From Candidatus Woesearchaeota archaeon (lineage in GTDB: Archaea > Nanobdellota > Nanobdellia > SCGC-AAA011-G17 > GW2011-AR20): a stretch of 64,000 nucleotides of DNA. How positions within the stretch are numbered: position 1 is the stretch's first letter; every line of letters starts with the position of its first letter. Where the stretch lies: contig JAGVYZ010000014.1 of assembly GCA_018303025.1 (NCBI GenBank), positions 21,145-85,144 of the forward strand, read 5' to 3'. Shown piece after piece: positions 1-28,564 of the stretch. The position numbers and the translations under genes were made by a program. The notes beneath the pieces were generated by a model. It did no database searches. It saw only the letters and a program-made list of their open reading frames with translations, and was not told the origin of the DNA.

Positions 1-587
1 AAACCAGAAGTGCTTTCTCCTATTTCGTGATAAGCAGGAGTTACGTTTGTTTTTTGCTCCCCTGTTCTTAATTTTTCACTTCCAATTATTAATGAATGAA
101 ATAATTCATGAATTACTCTTAAATCGCTATTTCTTGGACTTGTTGCTAAAACAACAGGAATATCTCTGGAGCCTGTTGCATATAGTGATTTGTTAGTTTC
201 AACTCTTTCAGCAAACTCTGCTAATTGATTTAATGCATCTTGGGTGTTAATAGCATATTGGTCTAAATCAGCACTTATTACAAGACTAGAGTCTCCTGTA
301 ACTGGAGAAAAAGTTGGATTAAATAAAATCTGCCTATAGCTTGTTCCAGGACCTCTGTTTTTTGGGTCATATAAAAACCAAATATCTGGCAACTCGACTA
401 ATTTTACTTCAGCAATTAAATCCTTATCTAAATTTTCATCAACTGCTAATTTTAAGCCAAATTGAAAACCGAGGTTATGAGTATTAGAAATATCTATAGC
501 GCTGTTAATGTTAACAATGCCTTTTTGATATTCATCAAAAGTTTCTTTTCCATTAATATAATGCTTTAATATTAGGTATCTTACCAT
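1..587 (-). CDS. Partial CDS (C-terminal part is cut by the window edge); protein with an HExxH (HELFH) zinc-metallopeptidase-like motif, function unknown
   Basis: Minus-strand ORF from ATG at 587 to the window edge, with an in-frame stop just upstream at 642-644. It is not in the ORF track because it is truncated. My translation: MVRYLILKHYINGKETFDEYQKG...VIHELFHSLIIGSEKL. Confidence 0.35.
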   Translation of the reverse strand, partial: MVRYLILKHYINGKETFDEYQKGIVNINSAIDISNTHNLGFQFGLKLAVDENLDKDLIAEVKLVELPDIWFLYDPKNRGPGTSYRQILFNPTFSPVTGDSSLVISADLDQYAINTQDALNQLAEFAERVETNKSLYATGSRDIPVVLATSPRNSDLRVIHELFHSLIIGSEKLRTGEQKTNVTPAYHEIGESTSG

Positions 588-726: not shown

Positions 727-2025
727 ATGAAAAAAATTTATGTTGGAATGAGTGCGGATTTGATTCATCCAGGGCATTTGAATATTATTAATGTTGCAAA
801 AAGTCTTGGAGAAGTAACTGTTGGGTTATTGACTGATAGGGCAATAGCAAGCTACAAAAGACTTCCTTTTTTATCTTATGAGCAAAGAAAAATCATTGTT
901 GAAAACCTAAAAGGGGTTGATAATGTTATTGCACAAGAAACATTAGATTATGTTCCTAATTTAAAAAAATTAAAACCAGATTATGTTGTTCATGGAGATG
1001 ATTGGAAAACAGGTGTACAAAAAGAAGTCAGGCAAAGAGTAATTGATGCTTTAAATGAGTGGGGTGGCAAATTAATTGAACCAGAATATACTCCTGGAAT
1101 ATCTTCTACACAATTAAATCAAGGATTAAAAGAAATTGGTACAACTCCTGAAATTAGAATGAAGAGATTAAGGAGATTGCTTGAAGCAAAAGATATTGTG
1201 AGAATAATGGAAGCTCATAGTGGTTTGACAGGATTAATTGTTGAACATACTAAAGTAAAACAAGAAGGCAAAAATAAAGAATTTGATGGAATCTGGATAA
1301 GCAGTTTAACTGATTCAACTGTAAAAGGAAAGCCTGATATTGAATTCGTTGATTTGACTTCAAGATTGAATACAATACACCAAATATTAGAAGTAACAAC
1401 AAAACCATTAATTGTTGATGGAGATACAGGAGGTATTGTAGAACATTTTCCTTATATTGTTAAAACATTAGAAAGATTAGGGGTATCGGCTATAATAATT
1501 GAAGATAAGATTGGATTGAAAAAAAATTCATTATTTGGAACAGATGTAGAGCAAAATCAAGATTCAATTGAAAATTTCTGCAAAAAAATTTCTGCTGGAA
1601 AGAAAAGTCAGGTTACAAATGATTTTATGATTATTGCGAGAATTGAAAGCTTAATTTTAGGAAAAGGCATGGAAGATGCAATTAATAGAGCTAAAGAATA
1701 CATAAAAGCAGGAGCAGATGCTATTATGATTCATAGCAAAGAAAAAGAACCTGATGAAATATTAGAATTCTGCAAGAGATATAAAACATTTGAACAAAAA
1801 GTTCCTTTAGTTGCTGTTCCAACAACTTACCATAAAATTACTGAAAAAGAATTAAGCGATAATGGGGTAAATATTGTTATTTATGCTAATCATTTATTGA
1901 GAAGTGCATATCCTGCAATGGTTAAAACAGCTGAATCTATATTATTAAATGAAAGAGCTACTGAAAGTGAAGAGTATTGCATGCCTATAAAAGATATTTT
2001 AAATTTAATTCCAGGAGGAAACTAA
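727..2025 (+). CDS. pepM: Bifunctional cytidylyltransferase / phosphoenolpyruvate phosphomutase (Fom1-like CyTase-PepM fusion)
   Basis: The N-terminal ~130 aa carry the nucleotidyltransferase HxGH motif ([10 protein letters not shown]) typical of the glycerol-3-phosphate / phosphocholine cytidylyltransferase fold. The C-terminal domain carries the PEP mutase signature [13 protein letters not shown] plus the DGDTGG and RIESL motifs of the ICL/PEPM superfamily. Confidence 0.85.
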
Positions 2026-3150
2026 ATGTTAAGTTGCCTGGATTTTTATAATGAACTTACTCATAGGGGGATTAATTTTTTTGCAGGAGTGCCTGATTCA
2101 TTATTAAAAGATTTTTGTGCTTATATTACGGATAATGTTGATTCTAAAAATAACATTATTACTGCTAATGAAGGTGGGGCAATATCTTTATCATCTGGAT
2201 ATCATTTGGCAACTGGAAAAATACCCTTAGTATATATGCAAAATTCAGGACAAGGAAATGCCGTAAATCCTTTAACATCACTAGCAGACCCTGAAGTTTA
2301 TAAAATTCCTATGATTTTGCTTATAGGATGGAGGGGAGAGCCAGGAGTACATGATGAACCTCAACATGTTAAGCAGGGAAAAATAACATTAGATTTACTA
2401 GTTACATTAGGAATTCCTTACAGTATTTTACCACAAAGTTTAGAAGAAGCTAAAGTTTGTCTTAATGAAATGTTTGCTTCTTTAAAAGAAAAAGGTTTAC
2501 CTTATGCTCTAGTTGTAAGAAAGGATACTTTTGAACATTATGAACTAAAAAATAAATTAATAACAAACTATGAACTAGGAAGAGAAGATGCTTTAGATTT
2601 AGTTTTAAGTGAATTAAATGAGAATGATATAATTGTATCAACAACAGGCATGCTTTCAAGAGAACTTTTTGAATATAGAGAAAAAAGAAAAGAAGGACAT
2701 GAACAAGATTTCTTAACAGTTGGTTCAATGGGGCATGCATCACAAATTGCATTAGGAATTGCATTGCAAAAACCTGAAAGACAGGTATATTGTTTTGATG
2801 GTGATGGTGCTTTGATAATGCATATGGGCGCTTTAGCTATAACTGGTTCACAACAGGTTCCTAACTTCAGGCATGTTGTTTTCAATAATGGTAGTCATGA
2901 TTCTGTTGGAGGACAACCCACTGTTGGATTTAATATTGATATTACTTCAATAGCTAAATCATGTGGTTATAAAATTGCAATTAAAGCTGAGAATTCTGAA
3001 GAGTTAGAAAGAGGTTTGAGATTTTTAAGAGAAAATGAAGGACCTTCTTTATTGGAAATAAGAGTAAATAAAGGAGCAAGAAAAGATTTGGGAAGACCGA
3101 GTACAACACCTTTACAAAATAAAGAAGCATTTATGAAACACCTAAGATGA
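2026..3150 (+). CDS. ppd: Phosphonopyruvate decarboxylase (TPP-dependent), Fom2/Ppd-like
   Basis: Starts immediately after the pepM stop. At 374 aa it matches Ppd length. Has a thiamine-diphosphate binding motif (GDGALIMHMGALAI...NNGSHDS). Ppd is the obligate partner of PepM. Confidence 0.8.
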   Translation: MLSCLDFYNELTHRGINFFAGVPDSLLKDFCAYITDNVDSKNNIITANEGGAISLSSGYHLATGKIPLVYMQNSGQGNAVNPLTSLADPEVYKIPMILLIGWRGEPGVHDEPQHVKQGKITLDLLVTLGIPYSILPQSLEEAKVCLNEMFASLKEKGLPYALVVRKDTFEHYELKNKLITNYELGREDALDLVLSELNENDIIVSTTGMLSRELFEYREKRKEGHEQDFLTVGSMGHASQIALGIALQKPERQVYCFDGDGALIMHMGALAITGSQQVPNFRHVVFNNGSHDSVGGQPTVGFNIDITSIAKSCGYKIAIKAENSEELERGLRFLRENEGPSLLEIRVNKGARKDLGRPSTTPLQNKEAFMKHLR

Positions 3151-4271
3151 ACCAGGAAGAACATATTGGCAAAGGAAGTTTAAAAAAATTGCCTGAAATC
3201 ATAAAAAGATTTGGTTCGAAAAAAATATTTCTTGTTACTGGGAAAAAATCTTTTGAATCTTTAAATGGTAAAGAAATTATAGATAGTTTGAAAGAAAATT
3301 ATGAAATTACTCATTTTAATGATTTTTCAGTAAATCCTAATATTTATGATGTAAAGAAAGGTATTGAAGTTTTAAAAGAAAATAAATGTGATTTGGTTGT
3401 TGCAATAGGCGGAGGAAGTGTCATTGATATGGCTAAATCAATAAATATACTTGCTAATCAGGATGATGAAATAGAGAAGTATATAACTGATGAAAAAGAA
3501 ATAACAAAAAAAGGAAACAATTTAATTGCAATACCCACTACTTCTGGTTCTGGAAGTGAAGCAACTCATTTTGCTGTGATTTACATTGATAAAAAAAAGT
3601 TTTCTTTGAGCCATGAATTTATATTACCTATCTGTTCAATTGTAGATTCTGAATTAACAAAAAATCTGCCTAAAGAAATAGCTGCTTCATCTGGAATGGA
3701 TGCACTATGTCAATCTATTGAATCTTATTGGGCTGTTAATTCAAGCGATATTTCAAAAGAATATGCCAGAGATGCAATAAAATTAATTATTGAAAATCTG
3801 GAAAATTATGTTAATGAAAATAATGAAGAAAATCGAGAAATAATGGCAAAAGCTAGTCATCTTGCTGGAAAAGCAATTAATATTTCAAAAACAACTGCTG
3901 CGCATGCAATTTCTTATGGCTTTACTTCTTATTTAGGAATTCAACATGGTCATGCTGTTAGTTTAACATTGCCTTATTTTATAAAATTTAATAATGAAAT
4001 TAGTGAAGAGAGTAATAATGACAAAAGAGGAGTAGAATATGTAAAAAATACAATGAAAGAACTCTTTGATTTATTAAGCGTTAAAACATCAATGGAAGCA
4101 CAAAAGAAGATTATTAATTTAATGCAAAGAATAGGGCTTAAAACTGAATTAAGCGAATCTGCTGATAAAATAAACCTGATTTTAAATTCTGTTAGTTTAG
4201 AAAGACTTGAGAATAATCCCAGAAAAGTGAAAAGGGAAGATTTAATGGAGATATTAAAAAATATTCTCTAA
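3147..4271 (+). CDS. Iron-containing (group III) alcohol dehydrogenase; phosphonoacetaldehyde reductase-like (FomC/PhpC-like, makes 2-hydroxyethylphosphonate)
   Basis: ATGA overlap with the ppd stop indicates translational coupling. Has the Fe-ADH motif GGGSVIDMAKS and conserved His residues (HGHAVS). The position after pepM-ppd mirrors fom1-fom2-fomC. Confidence 0.7.
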   Translation: MNQEEHIGKGSLKKLPEIIKRFGSKKIFLVTGKKSFESLNGKEIIDSLKENYEITHFNDFSVNPNIYDVKKGIEVLKENKCDLVVAIGGGSVIDMAKSINILANQDDEIEKYITDEKEITKKGNNLIAIPTTSGSGSEATHFAVIYIDKKKFSLSHEFILPICSIVDSELTKNLPKEIAASSGMDALCQSIESYWAVNSSDISKEYARDAIKLIIENLENYVNENNEENREIMAKASHLAGKAINISKTTAAHAISYGFTSYLGIQHGHAVSLTLPYFIKFNNEISEESNNDKRGVEYVKNTMKELFDLLSVKTSMEAQKKIINLMQRIGLKTELSESADKINLILNSVSLERLENNPRKVKREDLMEILKNIL

Positions 4272-4308: not shown

Positions 4309-5814
4309 ATGGAACAGCCAAATGATTCATTGAAGGTTTTAGCCAAGGGTGCAATAATTATTTTAACATTAAGCGTCCTTACTAAAATCCTGAATTATGT
4401 ATACAAAATAATAGTTGCAAGAAGTTTGGGACCTGAAGGTTATGGCGTTATTATCTTAACTTCTGGAATTATAGGCTTTTGCGCTTCATTAGCTGTTTTT
4501 AATTTAAGTAGCGGTGTAGAAAGATATTTAAGTTATTATAGGGAAAAAGAAGGAAGAATAAAGAGTGTTACTATTTTTTCCATAAGATTTGTAATGATAA
4601 CAGGAGTTCTTATGTATATTTTGATTTTACTTTTTTACAAATATGTTAGTTTAGAAATTTTCAAAAATCCATTATTATTGAAAACACTGCCTATATTTGC
4701 CCTAGCTATTCCATTTTATGTTTTACTTGAAATAGTACTAGCTGCTTTCAGGGGTTTTGAAAAACAAGTATTTTATGGAATTTTTGGTGAATTTGGAAAG
4801 AGTTTTATTAAATTAGTAATAACTTCTGTATTTCTTTTATTGGGACTCGGAATTACAGGAATATCATGGGCTTATCCATTGACATTTTTTGTCCTTTTTT
4901 CATTTGGCTTTCTTGTTTTAACCAATAAGGTTTTCAATATTTTCAACAAAAAAATAAAAGAAGAAAATATGACTAAAGAGTTATTGAAATATTCTTACCC
5001 ATTATTTTTTGCAGGCACTCTTTGGATAGTTTCTAGCTGGATAGACAGTTTTATGATTGGCTACTTTAAACCAGAAGCAGACATTGGAATTTATAATGTG
5101 GCATTCTCTACTTCAAGTTTAATGACTATATTTTTCGTTGCATTAGGCAGTTTTTTCATCCCTGTAGTATCAAATCTTTTTTCAAAAGAAAAAATAGACG
5201 AAATTAAAGAGATTTACTCAAGAACTTGCAAATGGAATCTAATAATAGGGAGTATAATAATAGGATTTTTAATTATTTTTTCGCAATATATAATAAATAT
5301 TCTTTTTGGTATAGATTATAGCAATGGAAAAATACCTTTAATTATACTTTGTATTGGATTTTTTGTAATGATTGCTACTGGATATAGCGAGCAGTTGTTG
5401 ATGGCTGTTGGAAAAACAAAGCTTACTTTTTTTGCAAGATTGATTTCATTGATTTCCAATGTAACATTGAACATTATTTTAATACCAAAATATGGAATAA
5501 TAGGAGCTGCAGTTGCAACTTCTGCTTCTTTTATTGTATTACATGCATCTTTGCTGATCATGATAAACAAATTTTTAAGCATTAATCCATTTAATACTGG
5601 CTATTATAAAACACTTGTTTCTTTGGGAACTGCTTCATTAGCATCATTTGGAATATATCACTTCGTTAAACCTGGATTTTATACAATGTTGATATCCTTC
5701 TTTGTTTTTTCTGCTTTAATGATTAGTTTGATAATAATATTAAAAGTGCTTGACAAAGAAGATTTTTACATACTAAAAGCAATCCTAAGAAAAGTTGGAA
5801 TTAAAATTTTGTAA
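4309..5814 (+). CDS. MOP-superfamily polysaccharide/oligosaccharide flippase (Wzx/AglR-like)
   Basis: 501 aa, about 12-14 predicted TM helices, and the polysaccharide-biosynthesis-protein topology. Confidence 0.7.
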   Translation: MEQPNDSLKVLAKGAIIILTLSVLTKILNYVYKIIVARSLGPEGYGVIILTSGIIGFCASLAVFNLSSGVERYLSYYREKEGRIKSVTIFSIRFVMITGVLMYILILLFYKYVSLEIFKNPLLLKTLPIFALAIPFYVLLEIVLAAFRGFEKQVFYGIFGEFGKSFIKLVITSVFLLLGLGITGISWAYPLTFFVLFSFGFLVLTNKVFNIFNKKIKEENMTKELLKYSYPLFFAGTLWIVSSWIDSFMIGYFKPEADIGIYNVAFSTSSLMTIFFVALGSFFIPVVSNLFSKEKIDEIKEIYSRTCKWNLIIGSIIIGFLIIFSQYIINILFGIDYSNGKIPLIILCIGFFVMIATGYSEQLLMAVGKTKLTFFARLISLISNVTLNIILIPKYGIIGAAVATSASFIVLHASLLIMINKFLSINPFNTGYYKTLVSLGTASLASFGIYHFVKPGFYTMLISFFVFSALMISLIIILKVLDKEDFYILKAILRKVGIKIL

Positions 5815-6831: not shown

Positions 6832-8412
6832 ATGCAAAAAAGAGAAAATAACAATTATGATGGGAAAATTGTACTTGTTTATATTCATGATACTGACTCA
6901 TACAAAGCTTTGCCTGTAGGATTACAATATCTTGGTTCGCATGTAAAAAGAGAAGGTTATGAAGTTAAAATATTAAATCTTTATTTGGACAAAGTTATAG
7001 ATAATTTACCTGAAAATTATAAAGAACTTTTAAAAAAAGAATGTGAGAATTCTATTATCTTAGGAATCTCTGCTATGACTAACCAGGCTTATAGAGGATT
7101 ACAAATTTCAGAATTTGTAAAAAAAATATATCCTAAAATTTGTGTGGTCTGGGGTGGAATTCATGGAACTCTTTTTCCAGAAGATACTTGTGAAAATCCA
7201 AATATTGATTTCATTGTTATGGGAGAAGGAGAAATTACATTTAGCGAGCTTTTGAATAATCTTGGAAAATCAAAAAATTATTCAAAAATTGATGGACTAG
7301 CCTATAAATCTGGAAAAAAAGTATATGTAACTAAGAAAAGAGCATTAATTGATATGTCTAAAATGGCTATTCCTGACTGGGATATTGTTGACGAGTTTGT
7401 AAAAGAAAATATTTATCAATATTTCTGGGGGGACAATTTAAAGTTTACAGAAGTGCATACTGGGAGGGGATGCCCCCACAGATGTAACTTTTGCATTGAT
7501 TCTATTCTTTATGGAAAAACATGGAGACCAAGAAAAGTAGACAGTATTTTAGATGAAATAGAGATGCTGATAAAAAGATATAATATAGACCTGATTGAAT
7601 TAAGAGATGAAAATTTCTTTGTTGATTTAAAAAGAGTAGAAGAGTTTTGCGATAAAAAAATTAAGAGGGGGATAAACATAAAATGGGGAGCTTCAATAAG
7701 GGCTGATTATTTTGAAAGAATAGATGATAATTTTATGAAAAAATTGAAAGACAGTAATTGCTATAGATTTTGGTTTGGGGCTGAATCAGGAAGCCAGAGA
7801 ATTTTAGATTTAATAAAAAAAGATGTTAAACTCTCTAGTTTGTATAAATCAGCACATATGAGCAAAAAATATGGAATAATGCCATTATATTCTTTTATGA
7901 TAGGACAGCCGGGAGAGACAAAAGAAGAGATGAAACAAACAGTTGTTTTAATTAAAAACCTAATAAACATAAACAAAAGAACTGGAATTTTAGGACCTCA
8001 AATATTAAGGCCATATCCTGGATGTGAAATGTTTGATATGTGCGTTAAAGAAGGTTTTGAATCACCTAAGAAGCTTGAAGAGTGGAGAGATTTGGATAGA
8101 ATTTCATTATATTATTTAAGCACTGATTCTTTACCTTGGATAAAAGACAAAGAATTTGTAGAAGTTGTTGCTTATTATACCCCAAAAGCATTTAACATGA
8201 GCTATTTAGTGGGAATAAACTTTTTTTGGAAATTGCTTTTTGGATTAAGGTCTAAATTGTTTCAATTTGGATTATTTGCTTTTATGGGAACTAGTGAAAA
8301 AAGCTTAATGAGAATATTATTAAAGGAATATTTGAAGATAATAGACCAATCAAGTGATATTGGAAAAGGCTTTGTAAAAAGATTTACAAAGATTTTGAAA
8401 TATAGTGCTTAA
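6832..8412 (+). CDS. Cobalamin-binding (class B) radical SAM enzyme, probable methyltransferase; candidate Fom3-like
   Basis: An N-terminal B12-binding-like domain followed by CxxxCxxC (GRGCPHRCNFCID). At 526 aa it is close to Fom3 in length. Confidence 0.8.
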   Translation: MQKRENNNYDGKIVLVYIHDTDSYKALPVGLQYLGSHVKREGYEVKILNLYLDKVIDNLPENYKELLKKECENSIILGISAMTNQAYRGLQISEFVKKIYPKICVVWGGIHGTLFPEDTCENPNIDFIVMGEGEITFSELLNNLGKSKNYSKIDGLAYKSGKKVYVTKKRALIDMSKMAIPDWDIVDEFVKENIYQYFWGDNLKFTEVHTGRGCPHRCNFCIDSILYGKTWRPRKVDSILDEIEMLIKRYNIDLIELRDENFFVDLKRVEEFCDKKIKRGINIKWGASIRADYFERIDDNFMKKLKDSNCYRFWFGAESGSQRILDLIKKDVKLSSLYKSAHMSKKYGIMPLYSFMIGQPGETKEEMKQTVVLIKNLININKRTGILGPQILRPYPGCEMFDMCVKEGFESPKKLEEWRDLDRISLYYLSTDSLPWIKDKEFVEVVAYYTPKAFNMSYLVGINFFWKLLFGLRSKLFQFGLFAFMGTSEKSLMRILLKEYLKIIDQSSDIGKGFVKRFTKILKYSA

Positions 8413-8449
8413 TCATTAAGATTATAAACTTAATTTTTTTTGTCTTTTT

Positions 8450-9634
8450 ATGAGAATTTTAATAATGGCTGCTGCAGCTGCAACTTATGATCATCAAGGA
8501 TATTTTACTGAACTTGCTAAACACAAAGATGTTGAACTAAAAGTATTAATTTCACCTTATTGGTCTAGTTTTGCTGCTGGCGGAATTTCATTAAAAAAAG
8601 AAAATAGGGTTTATGCCAATAGATTTGGATATAATAATGAATCAGGATATAACCTAATTGAAAAAGTACCATTATTTTGTGGAAAGTCATATCATATTTT
8701 TACAGGGCTTTGGAAATTATTAAATGAAATAAATCCGGATGTGATAGAGTATATATTTGAACCATGGAACATATCACTAACCCAGATAATACTTTGGAAA
8801 AAATTATTTAGGAAAAAAACAAAAATAGTATTTTTTTCTCATGAAAATATTTATCAGACATATCAAAATAGATTTTTTTATAATTTAATACAGTATAAGA
8901 TTATAGAAAAATATAATCTTAAAAGAGTTGATGGCTGTAATGGAGCGACTAATGAGATATTAGAAGTTATGAAGAAAAAAGGATTTAGTGGAAAGACTAT
9001 TGTTACAGGAGATGAATTAGATTCTAAAATATTTCATGAAAAAGATGCTTCAGTTTTAAAGAAAAAACTCAAAATAAAAAATTTTGTTATTGGCTATGCT
9101 GGAAGGTTAGAAGAAGCTAAAGGAGTAATGACTTTAATTGATGCTATTGGACAGATAAAAAATGAAAATTTTACATTATTGATTTGTGGCTGGAGTGATA
9201 GCGATTTTACAAAAAAAATACTTGAAAAAATAAAAATATTTGGCATTGAAAACAAAGTTATAATAATAAATGAAAGACTGGGAAGAAAGATTGTTGATTA
9301 TTACAATATCATGGATGTTATTGTTGTTCCATCTTTAACTACAAAATACTGGAAAGAACAGTTTGGAAGAGTTAATATTGAGGCAATGGCTTGTGGTACT
9401 CCTGTAATTGGAAGCAGTTCAGGAGGAATACCTGAAGTAATAGGTAATGCTGGATTAATTTTCAAAGAAGGAGAGGCTAATAGCCTAAAAGACAAAATTT
9501 TAACTATAATGAAAGATAAAAAATTATTAAAAGAATTGTCTATAAAAAGCATAGAGAGAGTAAAAGATAATTTTACAGGCAAAAAGAAAGCTGAAAAAAG
9601 CTACAAATTTTATAAAAAACTGCTAAATCAATAG
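8450..9634 (+). CDS. Glycosyltransferase family 4 (GT-B, retaining)
   Basis: Has the C-terminal EX7E-type motif region EQFGRVNIEAMACGTPVIGSSSGGIPEVI. Confidence 0.75.
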   Translation: MRILIMAAAAATYDHQGYFTELAKHKDVELKVLISPYWSSFAAGGISLKKENRVYANRFGYNNESGYNLIEKVPLFCGKSYHIFTGLWKLLNEINPDVIEYIFEPWNISLTQIILWKKLFRKKTKIVFFSHENIYQTYQNRFFYNLIQYKIIEKYNLKRVDGCNGATNEILEVMKKKGFSGKTIVTGDELDSKIFHEKDASVLKKKLKIKNFVIGYAGRLEEAKGVMTLIDAIGQIKNENFTLLICGWSDSDFTKKILEKIKIFGIENKVIIINERLGRKIVDYYNIMDVIVVPSLTTKYWKEQFGRVNIEAMACGTPVIGSSSGGIPEVIGNAGLIFKEGEANSLKDKILTIMKDKKLLKELSIKSIERVKDNFTGKKKAEKSYKFYKKLLNQ

Positions 9635-9665
9635 GCATCAATAATGTTATAAATTTAACCTGCTG

Positions 9666-10376
9666 ATGAATTTCATGAAAGTTGTAATATTGTGCGGTGG
9701 AAAAGGAACAAGAATGGGTGAATCCAGCCAGGAGACTCCAAAACCTCTTGTAAATATAGGAGATAAGCCAGTATTATGGCATATAATGAAATATTTTTCA
9801 ACTTTTGGTTTTAATGACTTTATTTTATGCTTGGGATACAAGGGGGAGAAAATAGAGGAATATTTTAAGGATAATAAGGAATTTAATATTCAATTTTTTT
9901 ATACTGGGGAAGATTCTACAAAAGCGCAAAGACTTAATCTTGTTAAGAATGCTATAGATAGTGAAAATTTCTTTGTAGCTTATGGTGATGATCTGTCAAA
10001 CGTAGATATAATTAAAATTTTAAAATTACATGAAGAATCAGGTGATGTTGTGACATTGACTGCTGTTCAGTTAGTTTCCCAGTTCGGCATACTTTCTTTG
10101 AATGAAAAAGACAAAGTAATAGAATTTAAGGAAAAGCCAAAGCTTGACCACTGGATTAATGGTGGTTTTTTTGTTTTCAATAAAAAAATATTTGATTATT
10201 TCAAAGATGACAAATGGGAGTTAGAAAATGAAATCTTTGAAAACATAGCAAAGGAAAAAAAGATTAAAGCTTACAAACATTATGGATTTTGGCAGGGAAT
10301 GAATACTTTAAAAGACTGCATAGAGCTTAATAAAAGATGGGAAGAAAATAAAGCTGACTGGAGGATATGGGAATGA
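9666..10376 (+). CDS. rfbF: Glucose-1-phosphate cytidylyltransferase (RfbF/DdhA-like)
   Basis: Has the MKVVILCGGKGTRMGE...KPLVNIGDKPVLWHIM...GYKGE...FFYTGEDS signature of CDP-glucose pyrophosphorylases. The true start is probably MKVV at 9675. Confidence 0.8.
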   Translation: MNFMKVVILCGGKGTRMGESSQETPKPLVNIGDKPVLWHIMKYFSTFGFNDFILCLGYKGEKIEEYFKDNKEFNIQFFYTGEDSTKAQRLNLVKNAIDSENFFVAYGDDLSNVDIIKILKLHEESGDVVTLTAVQLVSQFGILSLNEKDKVIEFKEKPKLDHWINGGFFVFNKKIFDYFKDDKWELENEIFENIAKEKKIKAYKHYGFWQGMNTLKDCIELNKRWEENKADWRIWE

Positions 10377-11350
10377 AATATTGGGAAGGAAAAAATGTTT
10401 TTGTAACAGGCGCAACTGGTTTTGTCGGAGGATGGCTGGTTAAACATCTTGTTGAAAATAAAGCTAGGGTAGTTGTTTTAACTAGAGATGAGGTTCCTAA
10501 TTCAAATTTCATGCTGGAAAATTTAAATAATAAAGTTATAATAGTAAAGGGCGATTTAACAAATCAATTGTTAATTCAGAGATTAGTAAATGAATATGAA
10601 ATTGACACTATTTTTCATCTTGCTGCTCAGGCATTAGTCACTATTGCAAACAGTAATCCTGTAAATACATTTGAGTCTAATATAAAAGGAACATGGAATA
10701 TTCTTGAAGCAGCTCGACTTAATAATCTGGTAAAAAGAGTTGTAATAGCTTCAAGCGACAAGGCTTATGGTAGTCCAAAAATATTACCTTATACAGAAGA
10801 TATGCCTTTGCAAGGAGAGCATCCTTATGATGTATCCAAATCCTGCGCTGATTTGCTTGCAAGAGCATATTATAAAACCTATGGATTGCCTGTTGCAATA
10901 ACAAGATGTTCTAATATTTATGGTGGAGGAGATATAAATTTTAACAGAATAATTCCCGGATTAATAAAAGCTGTTTTGAAAAATGAAGAATTTGTTATAA
11001 GAAGCGATGGGACTTTTGAAAGGGATTACATGTATGTTGAGGATGCTGTAAATGCTTACTTAACTTTAGCTGAAAACCTAGATAGAGACGAAATAAAGGG
11101 AGAATCATTTAATTTTGGAACAGAGACTCCAATAAATGTACTCGAGCTAATTGAAAAGATAAAGAAAATACTTAACATTCATATTGAAAAAAAAGTATTA
11201 GGACAAGCCAAAGGAGAGATAGACAAGCAATATCTTGGATGCGAGAAGGCTAGAAGAATGCTTAACTGGAAACCACATTATAATTTAAATGAGGGAATCT
11301 TGAAAACATTTGAGTGGTACAAAAAGTACGAGAACAAGGTTATCAATTAG
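10367..11350 (+). CDS. rfbG: CDP-glucose 4,6-dehydratase (RfbG/DdhB-like, SDR family)
   Basis: Has the SDR signatures GxTGFVG and YxxxK (YDVSK). Overlaps rfbF by 10 nt. Confidence 0.75.
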   Translation: MGMKYWEGKNVFVTGATGFVGGWLVKHLVENKARVVVLTRDEVPNSNFMLENLNNKVIIVKGDLTNQLLIQRLVNEYEIDTIFHLAAQALVTIANSNPVNTFESNIKGTWNILEAARLNNLVKRVVIASSDKAYGSPKILPYTEDMPLQGEHPYDVSKSCADLLARAYYKTYGLPVAITRCSNIYGGGDINFNRIIPGLIKAVLKNEEFVIRSDGTFERDYMYVEDAVNAYLTLAENLDRDEIKGESFNFGTETPINVLELIEKIKKILNIHIEKKVLGQAKGEIDKQYLGCEKARRMLNWKPHYNLNEGILKTFEWYKKYENKVIN

Positions 11351-12536
11351 AAATGGAATTATAAATTTCCATTAATTTTTTATAATGTTTTTTTGAATCA
11401 GCCTGCTTAACCAAATTCAAGCTGTTTTTTGAAAAATTTAACCATAACTTTTTATTATTTGCTATTTTTTCAATTGATTTATTTAATTCTTCAGGATTTG
11501 CTACTTCTACTAAAAAACCATTTTTATTATTTATGACGAAATCAGTTATTCCACCGCGATTTGTTCCAATAACAGGCAAACCATGACTTAATGCTTCTAT
11601 AATAACAAAAGGTGAATTTTCCATCCAAACACTGGGAACAACAAATATTTTTGCTTTTGAAAATTCTTTTAAAACTTCATTATGAGGAATTCTTCCTGTA
11701 AACTCCACTGAATCTTTTAATAATAAATTTCTTACAATATCTAGGAGATTATTCATTTCAGAACCATCTCCAATTATTTTTAATTTAAATTTCGGATTTT
11801 GTTTATGAAAAATATTAAATGCTTCTATTAAATATTTAACACCTTTATTTTCTGATAAAGAACCAACATAAAGGATGGTATTTTCTCTTTTATTAAAAGA
11901 ATTCGTTTTTGATTTAGAATCTATAAAACTAGGATTCCAAAAAATATTTAAAAATCCATGTTCTTCCAAATCTTTTTTAAGAGAATTACTTGGAGAAATA
12001 TAAGCCTTAAATATTCTTTTGTTAAAATAACTTCTTAGTTTATTTCTAAAAAAAGAAATTAACCAATGATTAAAACTAATACAACCATTGTACAAACAAA
12101 CAATCCCAATACCATTAACACAAGTACATTTTTTATAATAATTCTTTTTTAGAACTCCCCAGCCATTTGCACAAATAACACCCCAATCATGGACAGTAAA
12201 TATTGCCGGAATTTTTGAATTTTTTATGGCTAATAAAACCGATAATGAATATTGATTATTATTATGTAGATGAATTACATCAGGATTAAACTCTTTTATT
12301 TTTTTCTTAAATTTATTATAAATTTCAAAACTGAAAAAAAATCTTCTAAAATTTAGCATATATTTGTTTTTAGAATGAATTATTAATGTTAAGTCCGTAC
12401 TCTCTAATTGTTTATCAGAAAAGGCAATTATATGTACTTTATGTTTATTTTTTTCTAGAATTTTCTTAATTTCTAAGATATAAGTTTCAGTACCACCCCA
12501 TTCACGATACATATCATTAATTATTAATATTTTCAT
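11343..12536 (-). CDS. Glycosyltransferase family 4
   Basis: GT-B C-terminal motif ENSPFVIIEALSHGLPVIGTNRGGITDFV. Confidence 0.7.
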   Translation of the reverse strand: MKILIINDMYREWGGTETYILEIKKILEKNKHKVHIIAFSDKQLESTDLTLIIHSKNKYMLNFRRFFFSFEIYNKFKKKIKEFNPDVIHLHNNNQYSLSVLLAIKNSKIPAIFTVHDWGVICANGWGVLKKNYYKKCTCVNGIGIVCLYNGCISFNHWLISFFRNKLRSYFNKRIFKAYISPSNSLKKDLEEHGFLNIFWNPSFIDSKSKTNSFNKRENTILYVGSLSENKGVKYLIEAFNIFHKQNPKFKLKIIGDGSEMNNLLDIVRNLLLKDSVEFTGRIPHNEVLKEFSKAKIFVVPSVWMENSPFVIIEALSHGLPVIGTNRGGITDFVINNKNGFLVEVANPEELNKSIEKIANNKKLWLNFSKNSLNLVKQADSKKHYKKLMEIYNSISN

Positions 12537-14170
12537 TTTGTTTTATAAATTTTGATTGAATCTCCTTCTTTTATTTTTGATAAATTTAAGTTTTTAGTAC
12601 TGATAACATAATCATAATTTTGATAATTGCTTATGTTATCTTCTTTTACACTGCCCCTTATCCAATAAGCGATTATAGTAATTGGACGATCTTTTGGTTT
12701 AGAAGGATCTTCTGAGATTGTTGCAGTATAATTTTTTTTATCGTCAATATCAATTAGGTAATTTGCATCTTTTTTTAAGTTTTCATTTATCCAAAAACCT
12801 AATTGAACCTGTTCTAGATTAAGCCATCTGTATTGTGAATCATAAACTATAACTGCAGAACTTAACAAGCTTAATGAAAAAAAATAAATCAGGAAAAATG
12901 AGGTTAAATATTTGAAATTTAATTTTTTGATTAGAATTAAAGACAAACTTAAGATTATAATGACTAAAGTAATAATTATTGTCGAATGAACTGTAAATAT
13001 TTCAAGTATATATTTTAATATCCCTATACTAATCCATGAGCTATTATTAGCTGGGAAAAAGAGATTGTAGATAATAAAAGGTGTTGTTATTGCTAAAAAA
13101 GATGAAACAGCTAAAACCAATTTTTTAGGGAAAGATTGATATTTTTCCAAAGCAATAAATCCTAAAATAATAAAAAGTGGAAATAAAACAGAAATATACC
13201 TTCCTAAGATTCTATAATCATTATAATGTTCAAAAGCTCCACTATGATTTGCAGCAATTAATATTACAAAAATTGTTGATAAAAATGTAAGATCTAAAAA
13301 TAATCTTTCTTTTTGATTTAAATATTTATATTTAAAAAGAAGATAAACAGACAAAATAAAGAAGATTATTCCTAATGAGATTATTAAATAATCAATATAA
13401 AAGAATGTCCAGATGATTTTGTTTAGTAAAAAAAATGGACCTGATATTTTGTTAATTGAATTGGTATAGCCAAAAATTCCTATTAAGGAAAATCCGTTTA
13501 AAATTATTTTCGTGATTATCCAAGGCAATAAAGTGGCTAAAAGAGCTAATAATAAAAGCAATTTATTTCTTAAGAATAACATTTTTTTATTTTCTCTAAA
13601 TAAATAAATCAAAATCAAGAAAAATATTACTGGAAGGAGAAAAATTGAGATTATTCTTGTTAAAATACACAAACCTATGAAAATTCCAGAAAGAATTTCC
13701 CATTTAATCTTTTTTTCAGTAAATGATTTTAGCAAAAAATAAACTGTGAAAAGAAAGAGTGTAAAAATTATATTTTCACTAAAAGCATAAAAACTAAAAA
13801 TAAAAGCATCCGGAATAATAGAAATAATTAGAGAAATCATAATACTCTTTTTTTCATTAAAAAATTCTTTAGAGATTAAATATGCAGGTATGATTACTAA
13901 AGAAGATAAAATAATTCCTATTAATTTAATGAAAAAAAAGACTAGGTTCATATCACTAAAGATAAATGCAGGGGAAATTAACATTGGGTAAAATGGAGGG
14001 TAAGTTCCACTAGTTGCTATTGAAGCCAAACTGGGATTATCAAAAAATGACTTTGCTTCTTCAAAATAATAAAAGGAATCTGCAAAACCTAAAGGAACCT
14101 GTATAAAAAATGATATTCCTAATTTTAGTAAAATAAGAAATACAACTAAAAAAATTAGGTTTTTTTTCAT
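12533..14170 (-). CDS. GT-C fold membrane glycosyltransferase (ArnT/PMT/GT39-like, polyprenyl-phosphate-sugar dependent)
   Basis: 545 aa with more than 10 TM helices, an ArnT-like N-terminal loop and a C-terminal soluble domain. Overlaps the upstream GT4 by 4 nt. Confidence 0.6.
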   Translation of the reverse strand: MKKNLIFLVVFLILLKLGISFFIQVPLGFADSFYYFEEAKSFFDNPSLASIATSGTYPPFYPMLISPAFIFSDMNLVFFFIKLIGIILSSLVIIPAYLISKEFFNEKKSIMISLIISIIPDAFIFSFYAFSENIIFTLFLFTVYFLLKSFTEKKIKWEILSGIFIGLCILTRIISIFLLPVIFFLILIYLFRENKKMLFLRNKLLLLLALLATLLPWIITKIILNGFSLIGIFGYTNSINKISGPFFLLNKIIWTFFYIDYLIISLGIIFFILSVYLLFKYKYLNQKERLFLDLTFLSTIFVILIAANHSGAFEHYNDYRILGRYISVLFPLFIILGFIALEKYQSFPKKLVLAVSSFLAITTPFIIYNLFFPANNSSWISIGILKYILEIFTVHSTIIITLVIIILSLSLILIKKLNFKYLTSFFLIYFFSLSLLSSAVIVYDSQYRWLNLEQVQLGFWINENLKKDANYLIDIDDKKNYTATISEDPSKPKDRPITIIAYWIRGSVKEDNISNYQNYDYVISTKNLNLSKIKEGDSIKIYKTK

Positions 14171-14200
14171 AATAGCATTAATTTCAAAACAGTTTTAACC

Positions 14201-14938
14201 TTAGTATTCTCTTAAGATTCTGATCTTTAACTTTATCAATTTTACCAAATAGTCTATACTAGATTCAAAGACTTTTGCTTTTGATTTTCTTTCTTCAAAC
14301 TCTCTTTTGTAAAATATGCTTGGAATCTCTTTCATCTTTAATCCTTCTTTATATGAAATAATGCATATCTCAGTATCCCAAAACCAATGATTGTCTTTTA
14401 TCTTGTCTAAGATTGGAAGAATTTTGTCTTTTTTAAAAAACTTACAACCAGCAGCTGTATCATAAACAGGATTCCAAAAAAATAGTTTAGTTAAAAACAT
14501 GAAAGATATGCTAGGAATTACCCTGAAACAGTAACCTATACCTTTTTTAAAATAATATCTCCTTATGGTAACAAAATCATATCCTTTAAAAATTTCATCT
14601 ATTAATTTGGGTATATCTTCTGGTGATGTTTGCAAGTCTGCATCGATAAAACCAACAACCTGGCCTTTAGAAGCTTTTATTCCTTTTTCTACACCTTTTC
14701 CTCTTCCTAATCTTTTGTCAGAATGCAAATGAATTACATTTTTGTATTTTTTAGACAGTTTATCTGCTATCTTATCTGTACCATCTGTGCTTCCATCTTC
14801 TGAGATAATTATTTCATAAGAATATTTTGTTTTATCCATAACTTTTTTTATTTGGTTTACACTATCTTCAAGAATTTCAGCTTCATTTAAGCAAGGCAAG
14901 ATTATGCTTACTTCCGGATTATAGACTTCAGATTTCAT
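14201..14938 (-). CDS. GT2 polyprenyl-phosphate sugar synthase (DPM1/AglD-like)
   Basis: Has the DxD region (ISEDGSTDGT ... GFIDADLQ) and overall DPM1-like architecture. Confidence 0.75.
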   Translation of the reverse strand: MKSEVYNPEVSIILPCLNEAEILEDSVNQIKKVMDKTKYSYEIIISEDGSTDGTDKIADKLSKKYKNVIHLHSDKRLGRGKGVEKGIKASKGQVVGFIDADLQTSPEDIPKLIDEIFKGYDFVTIRRYYFKKGIGYCFRVIPSISFMFLTKLFFWNPVYDTAAGCKFFKKDKILPILDKIKDNHWFWDTEICIISYKEGLKMKEIPSIFYKREFEERKSKAKVFESSIDYLVKLIKLKIRILREY

Positions 14939-14941
14939 GAT

Positions 14942-15916
14942 TTAGACAAAACCTTTTTTCAAAAGATATTTAACCCTAATAAATTTTTCATCTCTGGGAT
15001 TAGAAAATTCCTTTGATTCAATTGCTTCTTTTATTTCTTTTACACCATGGATTATATCTTTTTTTTCTTCAATTTTGAAATAATTGCTAAATTTATCAAA
15101 ATTTACTGCATAAGACCTAGAATCTACATTGCCTGGAAATTCTTTGATATTTATAAGAGGAAACAAACTGTTTTTTATTTTTGAAGTTAAATCTCCGATA
15201 GTATGATTGTCTTCATTAAATCCGAGATTGAAAACCTCTCCATTAAAATTTTCTTTATTTTCAACTGCTAAAACCAATGCTTTTGCTGCATCATTTACAT
15301 GCAATAAGGGCCTTAACTGCATCCCTGTTCCAAACAATTTTATTTCTTTGTCAATCACTGCTTCAACTGGAATAACATTTGCCACTAAATCAAATCGCAT
15401 ATTCTTTGAGTAACCATACAATGTTGCTGAACGGAACAAGCAAACATCAAAATTTTCATCTGCTAATTTTTTTAGGAAAATTTCTGCTGCAACTTTGGTA
15501 TGAGCATAGATAGTTAATGGCTCTAGTTTTGCGTTTTCATTTAAACCATTAATTCCCTGCCCGCCATAAACAGAACAAGAAGACATGAAGATTAATCGTT
15601 TTACACCTGCTTCTTTAGATAAATTTGCTACATTTTTAGTTCCATTGTAATTTATTTCAATTGCCAAATCAGAAGTTAGATTGCAAATTGGGTCATTTGA
15701 CAAAGCAGCCAAGTGAATTATTGAATCCATTCCTAAAACTGCTTTTTTTACATCATCTAGGTTTCTTACGTCTCCTTTTATGAAATCTAAATCATCTCTT
15801 ATATGAAAATCATAAAGATTTAAGTCCAAAATTTTAACATTATGACCTTTTGATAAGAGTTCATTGACTACATGCCACCCTAAGTACCCATTTCCACCTG
15901 TTACTAAGACTTTCAT
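14942..15916 (-). CDS. NAD-dependent nucleotide-sugar epimerase/dehydratase (SDR)
   Basis: N-terminal MKVLVTGGNGYLGWHVV Rossmann motif and a YxxxK (YAHTK) catalytic dyad. Confidence 0.75.
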   Translation of the reverse strand: MKVLVTGGNGYLGWHVVNELLSKGHNVKILDLNLYDFHIRDDLDFIKGDVRNLDDVKKAVLGMDSIIHLAALSNDPICNLTSDLAIEINYNGTKNVANLSKEAGVKRLIFMSSCSVYGGQGINGLNENAKLEPLTIYAHTKVAAEIFLKKLADENFDVCLFRSATLYGYSKNMRFDLVANVIPVEAVIDKEIKLFGTGMQLRPLLHVNDAAKALVLAVENKENFNGEVFNLGFNEDNHTIGDLTSKIKNSLFPLINIKEFPGNVDSRSYAVNFDKFSNYFKIEEKKDIIHGVKEIKEAIESKEFSNPRDEKFIRVKYLLKKGFV

Positions 15917-16016
15917 TTGAATAAAAAGTTGAATAATTTTATAAAACTATTCAATTTTTGCTTATTTTAATTTACAAAAACATTTTTTAAAATTTATTCT
16001 TTTATTTTGCCAGTTA

Positions 16017-17051
16017 TTATCTGCTAACTGATAAGCCCAATTCATTCAAGACATAATCTGCCTGTTTAACCATTGCTTTTGCATGTTCTACTGGGCCAAA
16101 ATTTGTTCTTGTTTCAAAAGTTACAACTTTTAGTTCTGGAGTACTGTTAATAACTTTCTTGGCAATATCCAATAATCTTTCAGCTAATATATCTCCCTTA
16201 GCAAATAAGCGATGAGAATCTATATAACCAGATTTATCATCTCCAAAAGGTACAGCAAGATGCATCTGATATGTTCTTCCTTTACTTACATTCATTATAG
16301 CATCAATGTAATTCTCAATTTTATTATATCTTGCTTCAGTTGTTTTAGCATCTGCAGATATAAAAATATGAGCAACATCAAATAAAAATCCGGGGGGAAT
16401 ACTGGATTGCCCGGCGGCCAAATTTAAAACCCCATTAACAAAATCCGGCTCTGAAATAAACATATAACCAATATTTATGCCGTGATTTTTAATAACTTTT
16501 TCGATATATTCTCTTTGTTTAAGTGCTTCTTCTTTTTGAGAAGACCAGTCGATTGAGGTTTGCCTTGAATAATCAACTGATTCAAGAACTAATTGTTTTC
16601 TTTGAAATTCTGGACCTGAATTTATCCTCTGTTCTAAACCAGATAGATTTCCAGCTATTCTTTGTAGTAATAAATTTCTGTCTACAATTAGGGTTCCAGG
16701 AAAAGGAATACATGGGCAACCAGCCATATTTATTACTTTTTCAGCTGAAAAGCCACAATGGAAACCAACTGTTGGAGCGTCCGATTTTCTCGCAACTTCA
16801 ATAATTCTTTCACCCTGTTTTGTTGAAAAAATGTCTAAAAAATTAGGGTCACCTAAATTAAGAGTTGAGTCTAATCCGGGATTATGGGAAGAAACTTTTA
16901 ATCCTGCTTCCTGTATGCCTTCAATGTCCTGATTTATAACTGGAAGCTCTATACCTGAAATTATATTTGAACTTTTTAGGATAGCTAAGGCTTTTTTTAT
17001 TTCAAAATCTTTAGTTATATCATATTTGAATGAAACATATAATTGTACCAT
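16017..17051 (-). CDS. Hypothetical protein of unknown function, with amino-acid and nucleotide composition atypical for this genome
   Basis: 344-aa ORF. Rich in G/A/P/Q/R and locally GC-rich (e.g. cccggcggcc near 16420), unlike the K/N/I-rich neighbours. I do not recognise a confident family. Confidence 0.5.
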   Translation of the reverse strand: MVQLYVSFKYDITKDFEIKKALAILKSSNIISGIELPVINQDIEGIQEAGLKVSSHNPGLDSTLNLGDPNFLDIFSTKQGERIIEVARKSDAPTVGFHCGFSAEKVINMAGCPCIPFPGTLIVDRNLLLQRIAGNLSGLEQRINSGPEFQRKQLVLESVDYSRQTSIDWSSQKEEALKQREYIEKVIKNHGINIGYMFISEPDFVNGVLNLAAGQSSIPPGFLFDVAHIFISADAKTTEARYNKIENYIDAIMNVSKGRTYQMHLAVPFGDDKSGYIDSHRLFAKGDILAERLLDIAKKVINSTPELKVVTFETRTNFGPVEHAKAMVKQADYVLNELGLSVSR

Positions 17052-17165
17052 ATTGCTTAATAATTTTATCGTTTATAAATTTGTCTCTTTTATGTAACAA
17101 CTAATTATCAAACAATGCAGTCAAACATATTTTTATTTAAAATATAATCTAAAAGAAGATTTAAT

Positions 17166-17173
17166 GGGGGGGG
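17166..17173. repeat. G8 homopolymer tract in a divergent promoter region
   Basis: GGGGGGGG sits 45 nt upstream of the class B radical SAM gene at 17218. G runs are rare in this ~28% GC sequence. Confidence 0.6.
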
Positions 17174-17217
17174 AAGTAAAACAAAGAATTTAAAAATCAG
17201 CATTTGAGATTCTTTTT

Positions 17218-18513: not shown

Positions 18514-18514
18514 T

Positions 18515-19983: not shown

Positions 19984-20035
19984 AATTAAAAAGCCAAATA
20001 AAAATCTATATAAAGATTGTTAATTTTCTAAAATT

Positions 20036-28510: not shown

Positions 28511-28545
28511 ATATTTTACAAGATAATAAGGTTTAAATAGCTAAT

Positions 28546-28564
28546 GGTATGAACAGTTCATACC
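28546..28564. promoter_or_regulatory. Perfect 19-bp palindrome GGTATGAAC-A-GTTCATACC, a candidate operator for the adjacent RHH-domain protein
   Basis: Read directly in the divergent intergenic region. It abuts the ATG of the GHMP kinase gene and lies 36 nt from the start of the RHH-fusion gene. Confidence 0.5.

Follow-up and report, generated by a model that had tools for sequence, protein, structure and literature searches.

What does a DPANN archaeon do with a carbon–phosphorus (C–P) bond, and where does it place it? The question arises from a 64,000-nucleotide stretch of a Candidatus Woesearchaeota genome (GCA_018303025.1, contig JAGVYZ010000014.1, positions 21,145 to 85,144; hereafter the window), which carries three tightly coupled phosphonate synthesis genes next to a large set of glycan assembly genes. 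We consider it probable that the three genes are a widespread, horizontally mobile cassette that makes cytidylyl-2-hydroxyethylphosphonate (CMP-HEP), and that the hydroxyethylphosphonyl group ends up on the cell surface. The cassette sits at the extreme left edge of the window and, with the gene that follows it, comprises these features:

727–2025, plus strand: Fom1-type bifunctional fusion of a cytidylyltransferase (CyTase) and a phosphoenolpyruvate (PEP) phosphomutase (PepM or Ppm), 432 amino acids (aa), from Pfam, NCBIfam, PDB and motifs (open reading frame (ORF) 1)
about 751–1116, plus strand: N-terminal cytidylyltransferase domain of ORF1 (aa 9–130), from PF01467
about 1168–2016, plus strand: C-terminal PEP phosphomutase domain of ORF1 (aa 148–430), from PF13714 at aa 148–406
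2026–3150, plus strand: phosphonopyruvate decarboxylase (Ppd / Fom2 / AepY type) dependent on thiamine pyrophosphate (TPP), 374 aa, from TIGR03297, TPP motif and PDB (ORF2)
3147–4271, plus strand: group III iron alcohol dehydrogenase (Fe-ADH), 374 aa, from Pfam Fe-ADH and ADH_Fe_C (ORF3)
4309–5814, plus strand: Wzx/MurJ-type polysaccharide flippase, 501 aa, about 12 transmembrane (TM) segments, from Pfam Polysacc_synt, MatE and MurJ and the TM count

The coordinates and tight coupling of the three genes, as described in an initial annotation of this DNA, were confirmed. The pepM stop codon (TAA, 2023–2025) abuts the ppd start codon at 2026, which has GGAGGA ahead of it, and ppd and the ADH gene share an ATGA overlap (3147–3150). 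The flippase gene begins 37 nt past the ADH stop on the same strand and is probably co-transcribed with the cassette; identical metagenome contigs show the same order from cassette to flippase. On the other side, a divergent gene (3–587, minus strand) runs off the window with 195 aa visible, and we found no Pfam match for it and no homolog in any relative locus examined.

ORF1 scored 416.6 bits against the NCBIfam PEP mutase equivalog TIGR02320 (cutoff 319.55) and far under the cutoffs of the phosphonopyruvate hydrolase, methylisocitrate lyase and CPEP mutase models. The EDKxxxxxNS motif, used as Ppm-specific in earlier work (PMC6697681), is present at residue 259. The C-terminal part matches the PepM structures 5unc and 1m1b (E values of 1e-43 to 1e-47), and its DxD, ARxE and HSK segments can be aligned to the PepM structures from Mytilus and Streptomyces. 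An affinity to isocitrate lyase or CPEP mutase with loss of the motif, which had been raised as a possible objection, was thus not seen. In the N-terminal domain the CyTase motifs HPGH (residue 14) and GISS (residue 124) are preserved, and residues 4–137 align with the crystallised CyTase domain of Fom1 (PDB 5x3d) at 204 bits, with 89 of 134 positions identical (66%). The HEP cytidylyltransferase activity of that Fom1 domain has been published (Cho et al., 2017, as cited in PMC6697681), and given the 66% identity we predict that the N-terminal domain of ORF1 makes CMP-HEP from cytidine triphosphate (CTP) and HEP.

ORF2 scored 503.5 bits on the phosphonopyruvate decarboxylase model TIGR03297 (cutoff 312.5) and failed both sulfopyruvate decarboxylase (ComDE) models (116.3 bits with a cutoff of 221.5, and 82.3 bits with a cutoff of 147.95), so that the grouping with sulfopyruvate decarboxylases that would have spoken against this assignment was not found. 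It has the TPP motif GDG...NN at residue 259, and among PDB entries the split phosphonopyruvate decarboxylase 9iz3 matches it best. ORF3 matches Pfam Fe-ADH with an E value of 7e-46 and has GGGS at residue 88, in agreement with its assignment as a group III iron alcohol dehydrogenase. We predict that it is the phosphonoacetaldehyde reductase that forms HEP, given its conserved place after ppd and the window's lack of a transaminase for 2-aminoethylphosphonate (AEP): Pfam detected no Aminotran_5 gene among the scanned ORFs of the 64-kb window (ORFs of at least 120 aa, with two that overlap longer genes left out, in this and the other window scans). Domain-family matches of the cassette proteins range from about 1e-46 to 1e-151, beyond chance.

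By homology, the PepM domain would convert PEP to phosphonopyruvate, and Ppd would turn this into phosphonoacetaldehyde, pulling the unfavourable mutase equilibrium forward. The Fe-ADH would then yield HEP, and the Fom1-type domain would join HEP with CTP to give CMP-HEP. The predicted enzyme-level interpretation is right, including the Fom1/Fom2/FomC logic and the PEP phosphomutase with an N-terminal HxGH cytidylyltransferase domain that had been recognised from the letters.

The expectation that such a cassette would be surprising in a DPANN archaeon was not borne out. A large protein database contains at least 8000 scored candidate relatives of PepM, all with E values of at most 1e-30. The best 120 matches all share the two-domain architecture; apart from the protein itself, 118 are 72–79% identical to it and one has no value. 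Among the matches listed, the sources are Nanoarchaeota, Woesearchaeota, Ignavibacteria, Patescibacteria, WOR-3 and Aminicenantes. Such proteins are already named PEP mutase or HEP cytidylyltransferase in NCBI and JGI annotations, with several JGI names reading [quoted passage not shown] On GTDB contigs with one genome per species, at least 577 species genomes encode a PepM relative. The best 80 of these (67–79% identity) include cultured Clostridium, Lysobacter, Alteromonas and Xanthomonas, and 16 archaeal metagenome-assembled genomes (MAGs).

We called and clustered ORFs in 84 related loci (L001–L084), which include 13 DPANN and 4 candidate phyla radiation (CPR) loci. PepM is encoded in 81, Ppd in 77 and Fe-ADH in 70 loci, the pepM-ppd-ADH order recurring in about 70 of the 81, with median identities to the window proteins of 71, 55 and 41%, respectively. 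CyTase-PepM is unusually conserved across domains (67–79% identity to proteins of Clostridium, Xanthomonas, Bacteroidales and CPR), its partners Ppd and ADH much less so. In a neighbour-joining tree, calculated without support values, the window PepM groups with a ten-sequence DPANN clade, and contigs with an identical PepM come from groundwater metagenomes. We conclude that the cassette is conserved as a unit and widely exchanged, and that it is a recurring trait of DPANN and no one-off acquisition.

Where the product goes is suggested by the surroundings. About 51 kb around the cassette make up an archaeal glycosylation island, which includes:

45989–46981, minus strand: AglH/MraY-family polyprenyl-phosphate sugar-1-phosphate transferase, about 8 TM segments, from PF00953 Glycos_transf_4 (E value 2.5e-33)
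49208–51949, minus strand: AglB/STT3 oligosaccharyltransferase, 913 aa, marking the far end of the island, from Pfam STT3 and WWDYG at residue 625

The AglH-like protein is a candidate for the initiating enzyme of a lipid-linked glycan. AglB scored 95.4 bits on TIGR04154 (archaeo_STT3), below the cutoff of 450. The combination expected of AglB-dependent N-glycosylation, namely STT3/AglB with WWDYG, an initiating glycosyltransferase and a flippase, is present. Between 4.3 and 52 kb we counted 17 glycosyltransferases (eight GT2, four GT4, three PMT_2-type GT-C, the AglH-like protein and AglB). The island with AglB, the AglH-like initiator and flippases therefore stands as initially annotated, and only the figure of “more than 17” glycosyltransferases was slightly generous, as the 17 include AglB and the AglH-like protein. 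Other island genes encode two Wzx-type flippases, four nucleotidyltransferases, sugar dehydratases/epimerases, a sugar aminotransferase, three S-adenosylmethionine (SAM) methyltransferases, one carbamoyltransferase and one CDP-alcohol phosphotransferase-family protein. The glycosyltransferases, flippases and AglB around the cassette support surface decoration, and attachment of the phosphonate to an AglB-dependent N-glycan is plausible. Wzx-like flippase genes are likewise found no more than 5 kb from the cassette in 14 other loci (7 DPANN and 2 CPR); together with the flippase gene that directly follows the cassette here, this favours a lipid-linked glycan over a simple lipid as the acceptor.

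The window is archaeal and of DPANN type. It has a GC content of about 28%, encodes an Rpb7/RpoE' subunit, a form-III-like RuBisCO and an IF-2B-family protein in addition to AglB, and several of its genes have their closest relatives in Nanoarchaeota and Woesearchaeota MAGs. No tRNA genes (ARAGORN) and no Rfam families at the gathering threshold were found in the 64 kb.

The pathway is probably not an antibiotic (fosfomycin-like) route. Pfam gave no match to FomD, HppE/Fom4, MpnS or HepD among the scanned window ORFs, in agreement with the earlier observation that neither the epoxidase nor a FomD-like hydrolase is visible, and we identified no PhpD-type or other tailoring enzyme of known antibiotic phosphonate routes in the window. 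The window proteins left unannotated comprise an 11-TM membrane protein, a TIM-barrel-like protein and two more of 308–348 aa; none resembles a soluble bicupin of about 450 aa, the fold and size of MpnS and HepD.

If CMP-HEP is a donor, a transferase is needed. TagF-like and LicD phosphotransferases decorate glycans. Among the related loci, 21 have Glyphos_transf (TagF-like) neighbours and 19 have LicD neighbours (17 of them bacterial), almost all in bacterial loci; a YidC-sulfatase-like membrane protein is near the cassette in 10, and more than half of the relatives examined have glycan phosphotransferase neighbours. No LicD, TagF-like or sulfatase-type transferase was found in the window. 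A CDP-OH_P_transf gene is near the cassette in 8 of 13 DPANN and 3 of 4 CPR loci (11 of 17), compared with 4 of 66 others (Fisher p = 8e-7). In six loci (L001, L008, L025, L030, L063 and L066) no more than about 100 bp separate it from pepM; they belong to Nanoarchaeota, Woesearchaeota, Patescibacteria, Planctomycetaceae and Deferrimicrobium. The window member of this family is:

22615–23292, plus strand: CDP-alcohol phosphotransferase-family membrane protein, 225 aa, about 5 TM segments, from PF01066 (E value 8.6e-12)

The PF01066 family motif, D-x2-D-G-x2-A-R-x8-G-x3-D-x3-D in a polytopic membrane protein, reads DVTDGSLAR-x8-I-x3-D-x3-D here, with all four Asp kept and Ile in place of the consensus Gly, which places the protein in the family. 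Its closest solved structure is AF2299 (4o6m, E value 8e-11), and it reaches no NCBIfam equivalog. The family is a chemically sensible source of a phosphonyl transferase, because CMP-HEP is a CDP-alcohol analogue without the bridging oxygen. The 22615–23292 protein is thus a tentative candidate, a little short of probable, for moving hydroxyethylphosphonyl from CMP-HEP to an acceptor hydroxyl, and it appears to be the most likely transferase in the window. CMP-HEP would give its hydroxyethylphosphonyl to an acceptor associated with the membrane; a lipid-linked glycan assembled by the island is the likeliest one. The Wzx-like flippase would flip this glycan, and the C–P group could end on an S-layer glycoprotein, another glycoconjugate or possibly a lipid.

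Several observations weigh against this reading at one step or another. The HEP and CMP-HEP chemistry is predicted here from sequence. On the phosphonate Fe-ADH equivalog TIGR03405 (Phn_Fe-ADH, PhpC/FomC-like) ORF3 scored 198.4 bits with a cutoff of 423.7; it ties with unrelated Fe-ADH models (e.g., ErcA, 200.2 bits) and reaches no NCBIfam equivalog cutoff, and for this reason HEP as the product rests on operon context. The CyTase domain is 60–77% identical to those of loci that carry an AEP transaminase. CyTase identity did not separate the cassette types and was dropped as a marker of HEP- or AEP-type specificity. As for the transferase, the 22615–23292 gene is 20.6 kb from pepM, in a conserved block of its own (DegT, methyltransferase, CDP-alcohol phosphotransferase, methyltransferase), alongside a divergent nucleoside triphosphate (NTP) transferase gene (19234–19983) whose product could supply a different CDP-alcohol. 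This block recurs in L091 with no pepM in view, and in L092 a homolog of the phosphotransferase adjoins B12-type radical SAM genes and AglB, with no pepM within 6–10 kb; taxon background could therefore account for the enrichment in DPANN and CPR loci. A word-based search for homologs of the phosphotransferase gave a single match and a three-sequence scan of metagenome contigs gave 3 loci, none with pepM in view; the outcome of this co-occurrence test carries little information and is mildly negative. Finally, the cassette lies at the left edge of the window, and a dedicated transferase could therefore lie upstream.

The block itself (19234–25431) is kept at 48–66% identity in the groundwater archaeon L091 (Ga0209541_10031273). 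In the window it comprises the divergent NTP transferase, DegT, two SAM methyltransferases, the CDP-alcohol phosphotransferase, a further SAM methyltransferase and the 11-TM protein; the methyltransferase at 21196–22059 is missing from L091, and a homolog of the 11-TM protein directly adjoins AglB in L087. The window methyltransferases (starting at 21196, 22056 and 23285) do not recur beside the cassette in relatives, and the DegT homologs are ordinary sugar aminotransferases; both were rejected as cassette partners.

The other genes that could act on CMP-HEP are those of radical SAM enzymes, since Fom3, which methylates CMP-HEP in fosfomycin synthesis, is a B12 radical SAM enzyme. The window encodes:

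6832–8412, plus strand: B12-type radical SAM protein, no match above a curated cutoff
17218–18513, plus strand: B12-type radical SAM protein, no match above a curated cutoff
35860–36978, minus strand: SPASM-type radical SAM protein, no match above a curated cutoff
38668–40056, minus strand: B12-type radical SAM protein, no match above a curated cutoff
40878–42215, minus strand: B12-type radical SAM protein, Pfam Radical_SAM domain only, aligning with the other three B12-type proteins

The initial annotation had overlooked the four B12-type genes and the CDP-alcohol phosphotransferase gene, as well as the position of the cassette at the window's edge. The 6832–8412 product has about the length of Fom3. 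Its identification as Fom3 is unsupported, with only generic NCBIfam matches below cutoff and generic B12 radical SAM folds in the PDB. In the large protein database its homologs occur across CPR and DPANN under generic or BchE/YgiQ names. Homologs of 62 and 43% identity are in contexts without pepM (L086 and L087), one of 66% adjoins a CDP-alcohol phosphotransferase and a methyltransferase, and family members sit, without pepM, beside AglB (L087) or sulfur-metabolism genes. These contexts suggest that archaeal surface glycans are subject to radical C-methylation or to other radical reactions.

In some relatives, radical SAM genes are closer to pepM. Among the loci examined, B12-type genes accompany the cassette only in DPANN and Saccharibacteria. 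A Woesearchaeota MAG (L026, CAYHEY010000012.1) has one at 8010–9509, only a few bases away from pepM on one side and from ppd on the other. Its product forms a subgroup with those of L004:14835-16322, L033:13605-15197 and L005:14030-15496 (34–61% mutual identity), all from DPANN and near the cassette; the window protein of 17218–18513 is only about 30% identical to this subgroup. In a Nanoarchaeota MAG (L033, JAHIVP010000018.1), the radical SAM protein encoded directly upstream of CyTase-pepM (8566–9972) scored 362 bits on the Sden_1168 P-methyltransferase model, far above its other matches and below the cutoff of 575. This hints at P-methylated (phosphinate-type) products in some DPANN archaea.

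Locus L004 (GCA_053533695.1, JAIYMO010000012.1) has, at 7679–20686 around pepM-ppd, three genes each for CDP-OH_P_transf and B12 radical SAM proteins, together with an AEP-transaminase-like Aminotran_5 gene and a truncated Fe-ADH gene, with ATP sulfurylase and adenylylsulfate (APS) kinase genes next door. It is an AEP-type, more elaborate version of the system.

With this evidence in hand, other fates of the phosphonate can be weighed. The CDP-alcohol phosphotransferase could place CMP-HEP on a core lipid of archaeol or diacylglycerol type, possibly scavenged from a host, in a Kennedy-like reaction. Enzymes of this family classically make lipid head groups, and in DPANN and CPR loci the phosphotransferases found with the cassette belong to it. 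A large “Burkholderiales CDP-OH” ppm family is, moreover, predicted to make phosphonolipids (PMC8942020). A phosphonolipid nevertheless seems unlikely here, as a Wzx-type flippase follows the cassette, glycosyltransferases and AglB surround it, the window has no lipid-synthesis genes, and the solved structure nearest to 22615–23292 is AF2299, not a choline/ethanolamine phosphotransferase. The final substituent might also not be HEP, if a B12 radical SAM enzyme of the island methylates CMP-HEP before transfer to give CMP-2-hydroxypropylphosphonate or a P-methyl product. The four B12-type genes within the island, the restriction of cassette-linked B12 enzymes to DPANN and Saccharibacteria, the L026 gene between pepM and ppd and the Sden_1168 score of the L033 neighbour all point in this direction. 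We think it very unlikely for the window, where no radical SAM protein reaches an equivalog cutoff (74–145 bits on the PhpK and Sden_1168 models, with cutoffs of 575–600), the 6832–8412 family is generic and occurs CPR/DPANN-wide also without pepM, and the window copies are only 28–30% identical to the pepM-adjacent proteins of relatives.

HEP or a derivative could instead stay soluble, as an antimetabolite, signal or phosphorus store. HEP is an intermediate of fosfomycin, phosphinothricin and dehydrophos synthesis (PMC8942020), and the window transferase is a candidate. Yet the window lacks HppE, FomD, HepD, MpnS and PhpD-type tailoring enzymes, the fused CyTase implies activation for transfer, and most of the relatives have glycan phosphotransferase neighbours, so that we give a free phosphonate very little credence. 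It is just as hard to sustain that the ADH is not a phosphonoacetaldehyde reductase and that the aldehyde goes elsewhere, e.g., to AEP through an unrecognised aminotransferase, with CMP-AEP or another activated phosphonate as the result. The sub-cutoff score of ORF3 would allow this, and closely related CyTase-PepM proteins do occur in AEP-type clusters (L004, L045 and L064). However, about 70 of 81 loci have the ADH in the same position, no Aminotran_5 gene was found in the window, and the window's sole aminotransferase, the DegT protein, is by its score (331.4 bits on the dTDP-4-amino-4,6-dideoxygalactose transaminase model) a sugar 4-aminotransferase. Decoration of the surface with HEP, delivered from CMP-HEP to a lipid-linked glycan, is the interpretation that we prefer.

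Three further gene groups of the island and its border were noted. Between the AglH-like gene and AglB, a NodU/CmcH-type carbamoyltransferase (47277–49007, plus strand; PF02543 and PF16861) suggests an O-carbamoylated sugar in the glycan. At 27752–30312, two NTP transferases and an HddA-like GHMP sugar kinase, which scored 230.7 bits on the heptose-7-phosphate kinase model with a cutoff of 600, form a sugar-1-phosphate activation module. Beside AglB, the segment 52042–56808 encodes a SpoIIM-like membrane protein, an IF-2B-family protein of ribose-1,5-bisphosphate isomerase type and the form-III-like RuBisCO; it is syntenic with L087:6971-12474, where the RuBisCO is 84% identical. The segment represents the adenosine monophosphate (AMP)/nucleoside salvage module typical of DPANN.

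Surfaces decorated with phosphonates resist phosphatases, and the decoration may alter recognition by hosts, grazers and viruses. The prevalence of the cassette among DPANN and CPR suggests an investment in C–P surface chemistry by episymbiotic, ultra-small cells, possibly for host attachment or protection. A bolder proposal is that DPANN and CPR attach HEP by a CDP-alcohol phosphotransferase-family enzyme, which would join LicD and TagF-like enzymes as a third class of phosphonyl transferase, with the lipid-linked oligosaccharide being flipped and transferred by AglB to give the first phosphonylated archaeal N-glycan. This full chain is distinctly improbable; if true, these organisms would keep a costly C–P pathway despite minimal genomes, and ultra-small groundwater organisms would be a previously unrecognised environmental source of HEP. 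HEP and methylphosphonate make up a major part of environmental high-molecular-weight organic phosphorus, and phosphonylated surface glycoproteins have been proposed in marine bacteria (Acker et al., PMC8931226).

A Fom1-type HEP/CMP-HEP cassette for surface decoration is already known, every step has a characterised precedent and no new enzymology is involved. What is modestly new here is the prevalence in DPANN and CPR and the association with CDP-alcohol phosphotransferase instead of LicD or TagF-like genes; our literature search found no paper in which Woese-, Nano- or Pacearchaeota or Patescibacteria are linked to the synthesis of phosphonates. The early steps of fosfomycin synthesis in Streptomyces wedmorensis (Fom1, Fom2 and FomC) have the same fusion domain order and the same three steps plus HEP cytidylylation. 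The window differs in having no FomD, no Fom4/HppE and no demonstrable Fom3, in an ADH that falls outside the curated phosphonate Fe-ADH equivalog, and in its setting, an archaeal glycosylation island instead of an actinomycete antibiotic cluster.

Fusions to nucleotidyltransferases account for about 60% of Ppm proteins, with PF01467 (Fom1-type) fusions at 23.6%, and it has been proposed that CMP-phosphonates serve as donors when surfaces are tailored (Rice et al., 2019, PMC6697681). The Pnt pathways described there likewise have a nucleotidyltransferase fused to Ppm, a CMP-phosphonate donor and a glycan-gene context. The characterised PntC, in contrast, is of LicC/PF12804 type, activates AEP and works with LicD-like transferases, whereas the window has PF01467, a predicted HEP product and no LicD.

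Among 434 ppm neighbourhoods, the HEP/PhpC type accounts for 8.5%, and isolated products of this type come only from Nitrosopumilus maritimus (methylphosphonate) and Stackebrandtia (HEP on exopolysaccharide) (Li and Horsman, PMC8942020). HEP-bearing exopolysaccharides are attributed to Stackebrandtia nassauensis / Glycomyces (Yu et al., 2014, as cited in PMC8942020). These actinobacteria likewise combine pepM-ppd-Fe-ADH with glycan genes, and the predicted product is HEP esterified to a polysaccharide. Their products were chemically isolated, whereas the archaeal system is known from its genes and its transferase class appears to be different. The methylphosphonate cluster of N. maritimus (Metcalf et al., 2012, as cited in PMC8942020) is likewise an archaeal pepM-ppd-ADH route through HEP. 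It has MpnS for the conversion of HEP to methylphosphonate, whereas no MpnS/HepD-like protein is encoded in the window ORFs scanned. The N. maritimus product was reportedly thought by Metcalf et al. in 2012 to be attached to exopolysaccharide.

The large ppm family with CDP-OH_P_transf genes (“Burkholderiales CDP-OH”; Li and Horsman, PMC8942020) has an archaeal counterpart in a Borg preprint, which reports a PEP mutase-cytidylyltransferase fusion, a PntC-AEPT fusion and a CDP-alcohol phosphotransferase in an archaeal surface-glycoconjugate region (bioRxiv 10.1101/2024.11.05.622173). Both kinds of cluster encode AEP transaminases and are thus AEP-type, unlike the window; the Borg fusion also has the opposite domain order, its PEP mutase lying at the N terminus, and in the window the CDP-alcohol phosphotransferase gene is about 20 kb from the cassette. 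What they share with it is a Ppm-cytidylyltransferase fusion together with a CDP-alcohol phosphotransferase gene, in the Borg case also in an archaeal setting among N-glycan genes and flippases.

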